From: a virus
Taxonomy: Duplodnaviria; Heunggongvirae; Uroviricota; Caudoviricetes
IMG/VR virus record: IMGVR_UViG_2698536618_000011
Span: 1-4,470 of that record
Reading direction: 5' to 3' (one strand)
DNA length: 4,470 nt
Position numbers and translations under genes: made by a program. How positions within the stretch are numbered: position 1 is the stretch's first letter; each line of letters opens with the position of its first letter. Shown here piece by piece: positions 769 to 1,113 of the stretch. The notes below the pieces were generated by a model that worked only from the letters and a program-made list of their open reading frames with translations, was not told the DNA's origin and ran no database searches.

Positions 769-1113
769 TCAGGCCAGCGGTGGAGTCTTCAGAGAACCAG
801 TAATTATTCCCGGTAGTTTTCCTCTGTAGGTTATCAACACATCCTGCGCCTCTAAAATGACGGGGCGCTTTTCCGGCAACGGACCATCCCCTTCACATAA
901 CCCGGCAGCAACATCCATGAAAAACTGCTTCGCCTGCTTTTTCGCCTCAGCTTCGTAAAACTCCAGCGTGGCACCTTCAGTACGGTCAAGACTAATCGCC
1001 ACATCTGGCAACAACAGTGACGGATACCCACCAATTTCCAGTGCCACAGTAACAGTAATCTTATCCGGGTAATTATTTATCCCTTTAACAACCAGTTCGT
1101 ATTTTTTCTTCAT
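769..1113 (-). CDS. 114-aa soluble protein of unknown function inserted between holin and endolysin; possibly DUF1327/YdfR-like
   Basis: ATG at 1113-1111 lies 4 nt after the holin stop, and a strong SD (GGGGAGAG on the minus strand) overlaps the holin stop codon, so the two are translationally coupled. The protein (MKKKYELVVKGINNYPDKITVTVALEIGGYPS...) has no TM segment and no recognisable catalytic motif. E. coli prophages (for example Qin ydfR, between essQ and rrrQ) carry a small gene in this position; the DUF1327 name is from memory and unverified. Confidence 0.7.
   Translation of the reverse strand: MKKKYELVVKGINNYPDKITVTVALEIGGYPSLLLPDVAISLDRTEGATLEFYEAEAKKQAKQFFMDVAAGLCEGDGPLPEKRPVILEAQDVLITYRGKLPGIITGSLKTPPLA
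852..1034 (-). other. alternative-frame ORF inside the 769..1113 gene; judged non-coding
   Basis: This 60-aa Arg/Cys-rich frame is fully embedded in the better-supported gene. Listed only for completeness. Confidence 0.05.

Follow-up and report, generated by a model that had tools for sequence, protein, structure and literature searches.

What does a gene of 114 codons do between a pinholin-type holin gene (S) and a SAR-type endolysin gene (R), and does its position imply a part in lysis? The question is raised by a stretch of 4,470 nucleotides from a virus of the Caudoviricetes (hereafter the window, meaning the whole stretch that was analysed), in which a member of the ydfR (DUF1327) family occupies this place. 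An earlier note on the same DNA had argued that the placement speaks for a role in lysis rather than for a random insertion. Our analysis leads to a different reading, to which we assign a probability of about 0.6: YdfR is not a component of the pinholin–SAR endolysin lysis pathway, but a late-expressed soluble accessory protein, that is, moron-like cargo.

All recognizable genes of the window are located on the minus strand (Table 1), and its DNA shares 95-98% identity with the late regions of H-19B, of many Stx1a and Stx2c phages and of YYZ-2008. The family matched by the 68-aa holin ORF (1324-1118), PF04971, is the Pfam family 'Bacteriophage P21 holin S'. The N-terminus of R (MNAKIRYGLSAAVLALIGAGASAP) is Gly/Ala-rich and weakly hydrophobic at residues ~8-26 and is followed by the catalytic motif E35-8aa-D44-5aa-T50, both read from the translation. 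Such an N-terminus and E-8-D-5-T motif are typical of a SAR-type endolysin, for which release from the membrane is predicted. The extra 114-aa gene from which the earlier argument had started, with a pinholin-type S on one side and a SAR-type R on the other, is present in the ORF list exactly as claimed. A further 184 nt of the window remain 3' of R; close relatives (YYZ-2008, PPyecE and VT2-Sakai) have the gene order R, Ant antirepressor gene, Rz. A search of the nanS–S intergenic region for repeats found none, and within the window neither a promoter nor a terminator could be assigned specifically to ydfR.

Table 1. Features of the window, listed in the direction of the minus strand.
Feature	Positions	Strand	Evidence or remarks
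TerB-like gene	4392-4063	minus	
DUF3927 gene	4066-3902	minus	
STnc100 sRNA match	3836-3664		Rfam
NanS-p-like SASA esterase, 584 aa	3527-1773	minus	
S21-type (pinholin-family) holin S, 68 aa, single start codon	1118-1324	minus	PF04971, E=1.2e-32
Shine-Dalgarno site GGGGAGAG used by ydfR	1121-1128	minus	sits in the last holin codons
ydfR-family CDS, 114 aa, DUF1327	769-1113	minus	ORF list, PF07041, phrog_406
Conserved DUF1327 core domain, codons 1-75	889-1113	minus	predicted strands 5-14, 18-27 and 37-43; helix 50-73
Low-confidence tail, codons 76-114	772-888	minus	linker region of the longer 176-329-aa members
Deletion scar, two CTGAAGAC copies	792-785 and 772-765	minus	flank the 3' end of the ORF (765-792)
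Spacer and R leader, 50 nt, without recognizable Shine-Dalgarno site	719-768	minus	ends ..CCTGATAAATATCC ATG; GC 36%
SAR-type lysozyme R, 177 aa, RrrQ-like	185-718	minus	PF00959, E=4.8e-24; phrog_7 endolysin

The ydfR ORF extends from an ATG at 1113-1111 to a TGA stop at 771-769 on the minus strand. Its 114-aa product matches PF07041 (DUF1327) over residues 1-112 with an E value of 1.7e-46 and a score of 156.8 bits, compared with a curated gathering cut-off of 25 bits, and phrog_406 with an E value of 1.2e-64; the HMM searches therefore bear out the DUF1327/YdfR membership that had been proposed. RefSeq E. coli DNA 100% and 99.7% identical to the window gene is annotated as 'YdfR family protein', a name also given to P0003 and P0005; an NCBIfam scan and a PDB sequence-profile search with the window protein gave no match. 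The protein contains no transmembrane segment (maximum Kyte–Doolittle mean over 19 residues of 1.18), in agreement with its earlier description as soluble. The ORF is not a chance one, because 2923 of 5426 complete E. coli genomes contain DNA like that of ydfR (~54%, with up to eight places per genome), because its dN/dS is below 1 and because homologues can be followed down to 25-38% identity; the last two observations also rule out a reading of the ORF as a non-coding spacer. The gene, its family and its arrangement (essQ-ydfR-rrrQ in the Qin prophage of K-12, and H-19B) were all already known.

Common though it is within E. coli, the family as a whole is narrow. Searches of larger collections gave 282 family clusters among 5.8 billion and 93 family representatives among 1.84 billion. 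A scan of species genomes gave eight loci among 185,579, all from Escherichia/Shigella except for two in probably mis-binned MAGs, and the family is found in 101 of 50,697 phage records, all of them Escherichia. In Stx1 and Stx2c phages no other form is as common as that of 114 aa, for which 59 phage records reach ≥99% identity; matched Stx1, Stx2c and some Stx2a phage records contain ydfR-like DNA. A profile search additionally retrieved divergent stand-alone proteins of 72-99 aa, named from Yersinia enterocolitica, Y. rochesterensis and metagenomes, which show 25-38% identity, correspond to the first ~72 residues only and match the profile with E values of 1e-22 to 1e-25, all of them as PF07041. 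An alignment of 16 divergent sequences was too variable for the locus search, and a closer subset was used instead.

The AlphaFold2 model of YdfR, calculated from a 32-sequence alignment, has block-mean pLDDT values of 73-93 over residues 1-70 and of less than 50 for residues 77-114, and the segment 76-114 is probably disordered. Inclusion of divergent homologues in the 32 sequences was required, as a 10-sequence alignment produced an unusable model with a pLDDT of 40. The core domain is the sole part that the window protein has in common with the stand-alone 72-76-aa homologues. In the structural check that had been suggested in advance, residues 1-75 are modelled with confidence; Foldseek searches against the PDB and BFVD revealed no significant structural neighbour of the model. 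A dsRBD-like RNA-binding fold was also considered and was set aside, since significant structural similarity to dsRBDs was not found.

Forms of the family span 89-329 aa and have residues 1-112 in common. They are built from an N-domain (residues 1-72), which occurs in two or three allelic types, and a conserved linker (residues 73-112), with a coiled-coil module and a C-terminal module of ~150 aa as optional additions into which the linker continues in the long forms; a Pfam scan of the long-form C-terminal modules gave no match. The GC content of the YdfR N-domain is 45%, compared with 52-55% in S and R. When long-form loci (L027, L079, L090 and L004) were aligned over the S–R interval, ~600 nt between CTGAAGAC/CCACCG repeats proved to be present in the long forms and absent from the window, where the second CTGAAGAC copy (772-765) includes the ydfR stop codon. 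As judged from this alignment, the 114-aa form of the window is shown to be a deletion derivative of longer modular genes (176-329 aa). The 110-aa form (L077) is a second, independent and slightly different deletion, and in some loci the long gene is split into three ORFs.

The junction between the holin gene and ydfR reads ...GGGGAGAG TAA AGCG ATG on the minus strand, with the holin stop at 1120-1118 and a 4-nt spacer at 1117-1114 preceding the ydfR start. The Shine-Dalgarno site had been described as overlapping the holin stop; it does lie in the last holin codons, but at 1128-1121 it abuts the stop. The order of Shine-Dalgarno site, stop, 4 nt and ATG is compatible with translational coupling to S, as had been supposed, and is conserved in all of the ~90 related loci examined. 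Throughout Escherichia/Shigella, the gene follows an S21-type holin gene directly on its 3' side, with the 4-nt junction, in every locus examined (~90), and such an invariant placement may result from selection for expression together with the holin and not from linkage alone. In VT2-Sakai, which lacks ydfR, the corresponding junction is GGGGAGAGTAA-GCTG-ATG, the ATG being that of R, compared with GGGGAGAGTAA-AGCG-ATG in the window, where the ATG is that of ydfR; in ydfR-less phages such as this one, GGGGAGAG serves R directly. The alignment of the window with VT2-Sakai places the indel from just 3' of the captured ATG to the first R codons, and ydfR thus shows the presence or absence among collinear relatives and the precise boundaries that are expected of a moron-type insertion. 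On these comparisons the coupling signal is the ancestral S–R junction (GGGGAGAG-TAA-4nt-ATG), captured by the insertion of ydfR. As the insertion is located exactly at the normal start of R, ydfR has inherited both the holin-embedded Shine-Dalgarno site and the 4-nt stop–start spacing. The R gene in ydfR-containing cassettes is preceded by a 50-nt leader (..CCTGATAAATATCC ATG) without a recognizable Shine-Dalgarno site, and this leader is conserved in these cassettes.

Were position a guide to function, YdfR could be a regulator of lysis timing, synthesized in constant proportion to the pinholin and with the action of a cytoplasmic antiholin, either by binding to the charged C-terminal tail of S21 or by modulating release of the SAR endolysin. 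Cytoplasmic antiholins exist in principle (T4 RIII), the stop-4nt-start junction with its strong Shine-Dalgarno site is invariant in ~90 Escherichia loci, and in Escherichia ydfR is always beside an S21-type holin. The same S and R alleles, however, occur without ydfR in many inducible Stx phages, and the junction is simply the ancestral S–R junction. Among 419 phage records matching S to R, ydfR is present in about a quarter of evenly sampled rows, while S and R are directly adjacent (745-nt span) in about half; the S and R genes of ydfR-less records, for example VT2-Sakai, PA5, TL-2011c and AU6Stx1, are ~90% identical to those of the window. Such phages constitute a natural deletion experiment, and S and R of phage 21 suffice for pinholin/SAR lysis. 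An antiholin would be expected wherever its cognate holin is used and would be expected to be absent from unrelated contexts, and ydfR does not follow this distribution, as its divergent homologues lie in tail clusters or by three unrelated holin families. Constraint is also relaxed and truncations are frequent: over one and the same set of loci, dN/dS is 0.13 for the holin and 0.09 for the lysozyme but 0.36-0.42 for ydfR, so that the constraint on ydfR is three to four times weaker than that on S and R.

The start region of the holin bears on the same reading. The window holin belongs to a single-start minority (N-terminal context IHQ/MEK), while most relatives have the dual-Met context MYQ/MEK; the Met that comes first in the dual-start motif is thus missing from it, and another regulator could help. 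The presence of ydfR is nevertheless not anticorrelated with the dual-start motif, as MYQM (or the single variant MDQM) is retained in 62 of the 78 loci with ydfR, and the holin of the ydfR-less VT2-Sakai also has MYQM. The candidate role of ydfR as a substitute for the dual-start antiholin was ruled out because most ydfR-containing loci retain MYQM. The literature searched contained no paper in which DUF1327 or ydfR appears together with a holin, which also weighs against a link between the two. We therefore consider a function of YdfR in lysis timing to be improbable, and the argument from placement is not supported, on four counts: S–R pairs without ydfR, divergent homologues elsewhere, relaxed constraint and the lack of complementarity with the dual start.

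Outside the S–R interval of Escherichia, DUF1327 genes occupy other late positions. The contigs of six divergent proteins and two of five viral-contig loci place the gene in lambda-like tail-tip clusters (eight loci, 72-99 aa) of Yersinia and metagenomic prophages, between gpM and gpL, between gpL and gpK or between gpI and gpJ. A leader that contains a ribosome-binding site (AAGCCGAAAGGCAGGAGTGA..ATG) is conserved in six of the seven tail-located loci examined (L091-L097), and the loci that share it sit downstream of gpM, gpL or gpI-like genes. In the other three viral-contig loci the gene is placed between the antiterminator gene Q and holins of unrelated families: in L115 the holin is of the lambda-S type and is accompanied by a GH19 endolysin, and in L116 and L117 the gene lies upstream of holin_8/holin_3_7 and a lysozyme. 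Across these tail, Q–S and S–R contexts, the DUF1327 domain either accompanies holins of three unrelated families or is remote from any holin gene. Of the three classes of context, two are situated at a lysis cassette or beside one. The observation which the earlier note had named as telling against its proposal, homologues mostly outside lysis cassettes, holds for the divergent branch of the family.

A small convergent gene follows DUF1327 in every non-Escherichia context examined. Phage Evi carries such a pair in the S–R slot: its S21 holin gene is followed after 4 nt by a DUF1327 gene of 72 aa, then by a hairpin, a convergent gene of 98 aa that belongs to phrog_25324, and R. This convergent partner and that of tail-located DUF1327 genes share 61% identity. 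In E. coli loci of the 176-268-aa forms, convergent ORFs are located in the 3' part of the interval and belong to PHROG families 18136, 2572, 1853 and 2411; overall the convergent partners fall into at least seven PHROG families that are mutually unrelated, and none matched in a Pfam scan. PADLOC returned no significant match for the window protein, for the 329-aa long form or for five of the six convergent partners scanned, and its sole match, of the L099 partner to PDC-M39B, is marginal (E=7.8e-4, 16.8 bits). Together, these loci are shown by comparison of their gene orders to contain a conserved late-strand DUF1327 gene with a hypervariable segment, inserted at three alternative late-operon sites (S–R, Q–S and the tail cluster), of which the window has a stripped-down version with N-domain and linker only.

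Two further explanations follow from these arrangements. The DUF1327 protein could work with the convergent partner, which would probably be expressed in the lysogen, in which case ydfR of the window would be the orphaned half of a two-gene module and a slowly decaying remnant that retains little function. As an example of such a role, one may think of a protein that neutralizes or regulates its partner in the late phase, the two forming a defence pair or a toxin-like one; the window has lost both the partner and the C-terminal modules. The recurrence of the convergent gene in the tail-cluster, Q–S and S–R contexts, the deletion of the whole partner region from the window and the raised dN/dS of ydfR all fit this explanation. 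The distribution of the partners over at least seven PHROG families can also be counted on its side, but the lack of relationship between the families argues against a specific protein–protein pairing. The 114-aa form is, moreover, the commonest in Stx1/Stx2c phages, with its N-domain intact and with dN/dS below 1, and the PADLOC search offers nothing beyond the marginal match noted above; we regard decay of an orphaned module as unlikely. The other explanation makes the protein unimportant and attributes the effect of the gene mainly to its presence in cis, in that the insertion parts R from the holin-embedded Shine-Dalgarno site and thereby lowers or delays translation of the endolysin relative to the holin. 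Conservation of the N-domain as a protein from Escherichia to Yersinia (25-38% identity), which includes sites unrelated to R, speaks against it, as does the purifying selection that is detectable in ydfR. On its side are the start context of R, which is the ..CCTGATAAATATCC ATG without a Shine-Dalgarno site where ydfR is present and GGGGAGAG where it is absent, and several independent deletions after which ydfR ends only a short distance from R (42-50 nt) or, in the K-12 form, overlaps it by 4 nt. An effect mainly in cis is in our view very improbable. The reading of ydfR as late-expressed cargo outside the lysis pathway accommodates these observations best.

As to what such cargo might do, the earlier note had called the family widespread in E. 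coli prophages and without characterized function, which is essentially right except that a 2026 report linking K-12 YdfR to RNase E was missed. In that study, residues 1-72 of K-12 YdfR were recovered three times in a two-hybrid screen and gave a signal with the N-terminal (catalytic) half of RNase E, the full-length protein gave a signal with RNase E 1-597, and Strep-YdfR co-purified Rne1-598 together with DNase-resistant nucleic acid, with the authors leaving a contaminant possible as the source of the RNA signal (PMC13232886). The interaction was reported for the K-12 allele under overproduction; overexpression of YdfR changed few transcripts, and growth arrest was reported for YegJ only (PMC13232886). 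YdfR is also a hit in an envelope-integrity screen, as cited in that paper (PMC13232886), its overexpression gave a candidate threefold rise in the streptomycin MIC (PMC12924614) and ydfR is listed among the uncharacterized y-ome genes (PMC11551758). The window allele is 47% identical to K-12 YdfR in the N-domain (residues 1-74), and by analogy an RNase E mechanism for the window allele is a tentative possibility. A more specific version, in which the 72-75-residue DUF1327 domain is a hitherto unrecognized phage effector that binds RNA as well as the catalytic half of RNase E, reprograms late-phase RNA decay and spreads through lambdoid phages as part of a two-gene module with a hypervariable antisense partner, seems to us doubtful.

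We propose that ydfR became lodged as cargo in the S–R junction of a lambdoid (H-19B/Stx1-type or Qin-type) prophage. The insertion has captured the start slot of R with its Shine-Dalgarno site and spacing and left R behind the 50-nt leader without such a site, and a deletion has reduced a longer gene to the 75-residue domain of three strands and a helix with a disordered linker. The conserved domain would be a cytoplasmic binding module for the catalytic half of RNase E and possibly for RNA, as extrapolated from K-12 YdfR. On this extrapolation, the likeliest activity would be modulation of host RNA decay or processing during late gene expression. An effect on lysis, if any, would be indirect and exerted in cis, through uncoupling of R translation from S.

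If the cargo reading is true, the finding is an ordinary one: a known, annotated gene in a known position and no new component of pinholin/SAR lysis. Even a modest function of YdfR would nevertheless be widely relevant, because ~54% of complete E. coli genomes and the matched Stx phages carry ydfR-like DNA, and uncoupling of endolysin translation from the holin could alter lysis, and hence the kinetics of toxin release, in Stx phages. The conserved 75-residue domain, the hypervariable downstream region, the three insertion sites and the reported RNase E contact are tractable features of this y-ome gene.

Among known systems, the closest is K-12 YdfR itself (P76160; Qin essQ-ydfR-rrrQ), which matches the same HMM, begins 4 nt after an S21-type holin gene and lies upstream of a 177-aa RrrQ-type lysozyme gene. 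The two proteins have the same N-terminal domain, at the identity given above, and are equally uncharacterized. K-12 YdfR differs in its length of 103 aa, in its C-terminal tail and in its stop codon, which overlaps the R start (ATGA), whereas the 114-aa window protein has the 'middle' linker module and 50 nt separate its gene from R. The cassette as a whole resembles the S-R-Rz cassette of phage 21 and VT2-Sakai in its PF04971 holin, its SAR-like lysozyme and the S-distal junction motif. It departs from the canonical order in that the R slot 4 nt after S is taken by ydfR in the window, and close relatives depart from it further with an Ant antirepressor gene between R and Rz.

Lambdoid morons, such as lambda bor or lom and HK97 gp15, are accessory genes inserted between conserved late genes. 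The ydfR family resembles them in its presence or absence among collinear phages, in its several alternative late-operon sites and perhaps in the GC content of the N-domain, which is below that of its flanks, as well as in that DUF1327 genes are accompanied by a hairpin and a small gene of opposite orientation. A classic moron is transcribed as a unit of its own and is often expressed in the lysogen; ydfR of the window, unlike these, has no recognizable promoter or terminator of its own and would depend on the late transcript and on the Shine-Dalgarno site in the holin gene. Phage-encoded modulators of RNase E are represented by the T7 gp0.7 kinase and by Dip of phiKZ. Like these, K-12 YdfR is a small protein of phage origin for which contact with RNase E has been reported; it differs from both in having no sequence or fold relationship to them and in that the reported contact is on the catalytic N-terminal half of the enzyme and not on the scaffold.

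In every cassette containing ydfR, the start codon of the SAR-type endolysin gene R is preceded by ..CCTGATAAATATCC ATG, and no Shine–Dalgarno site is present before this ATG. In ydfR-less cassettes, by contrast, R is served by GGGGAGAG, which is embedded in the holin gene. Phages with ydfR may therefore translate their endolysin at a lower level or with different timing.

The interval between the 3' end of ydfR and R carries convergent small ORFs in phage Evi and in the E. coli loci with a ydfR longer than the 114-residue form of the window. The five ORFs fall into five separate PHROG families, all of unknown function, and thus the interval is a hypervariable antisense cargo slot. 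On the other side of R, a GC-rich hairpin follows the gene in the window, and in close relatives a gene for an Ant antirepressor lies between R and the spanin gene Rz; these lysis cassettes therefore contain a second passenger insertion.

Features of the window and of related loci (L), with strand where recorded
Feature	Location	Strand	Remarks
R leader	window 719-745		
GC-rich hairpin (AAAACCCCG..CGGGGTTTT)	window 63-95		3' of R; A- and T-runs on flanks
Plus-strand unit 1	window 1495-1625	+	between esterase and holin; TTGACA 1504-1509; hairpin and T-run about 1583-1622
Plus-strand unit 2	window 1663-1775	+	between esterase and holin; TTGACA 1672-1677; hairpin and T-run about 1731-1770
STnc100 sRNA family match	window 3664-3836	-	Rfam
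Convergent small ORF	L079 4464-4727	-	PHROG 18136
Convergent small ORF	L090 4584-4916	-	PHROG 2572
Convergent small ORF	L083 4817-5131	-	PHROG 1853
Convergent small ORF	L003 4311-4589	-	PHROG 2411
Convergent small ORF	L106 (phage Evi) 3744-4040	-	PHROG 25324
Ant gene	L001 3255-3824		between R and Rz
Ant gene	L108 2516-3085		between R and Rz

Antisense to the late operon run two units that resemble each other loosely, with identity at 85 of 142 aligned columns; each has a TTGACA hexamer and ends with a strong hairpin and a T-run behind it. Neither unit had a match in Rfam; they could represent small antisense transcripts or plus-strand terminators. A strong match to the STnc100 sRNA family (108 bits, where the gathering score is 47; E = 8.5e-24) lies early in the late operon, with the DUF3927 gene on one side and the gene for the NanS-p-like esterase on the other.

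An Escherichia-type S21 holin–ydfR–lysozyme cassette is found in two metagenome-assembled genomes, labelled Veillonella parvula (L007) and Bacillota (L009), and probably reflects E. coli prophage DNA that was mis-binned or entered as contamination. The YdfR variants P0001 (196 residues) and P0002 (169 residues), each from one contig, have internally duplicated N-domain segments, which could have arisen through misassembly or through recent tandem duplication. A few genomes encode holin–YdfR fusions (PF04971 + PF07041; P0010, P0068 and L024, the last of 187 residues), in which a small frameshift in the 4-nt junction has joined the two reading frames.

The holin of the window has a single start at position 1324 in the context IHQ|MEK (upstream stretch 1325-1336), a form shared by 16 of 78 ydfR-containing loci. 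Most relatives, as well as the ydfR-less VT2-Sakai, have MYQ|MEK, in which two in-frame Met codons constitute a dual-start arrangement.
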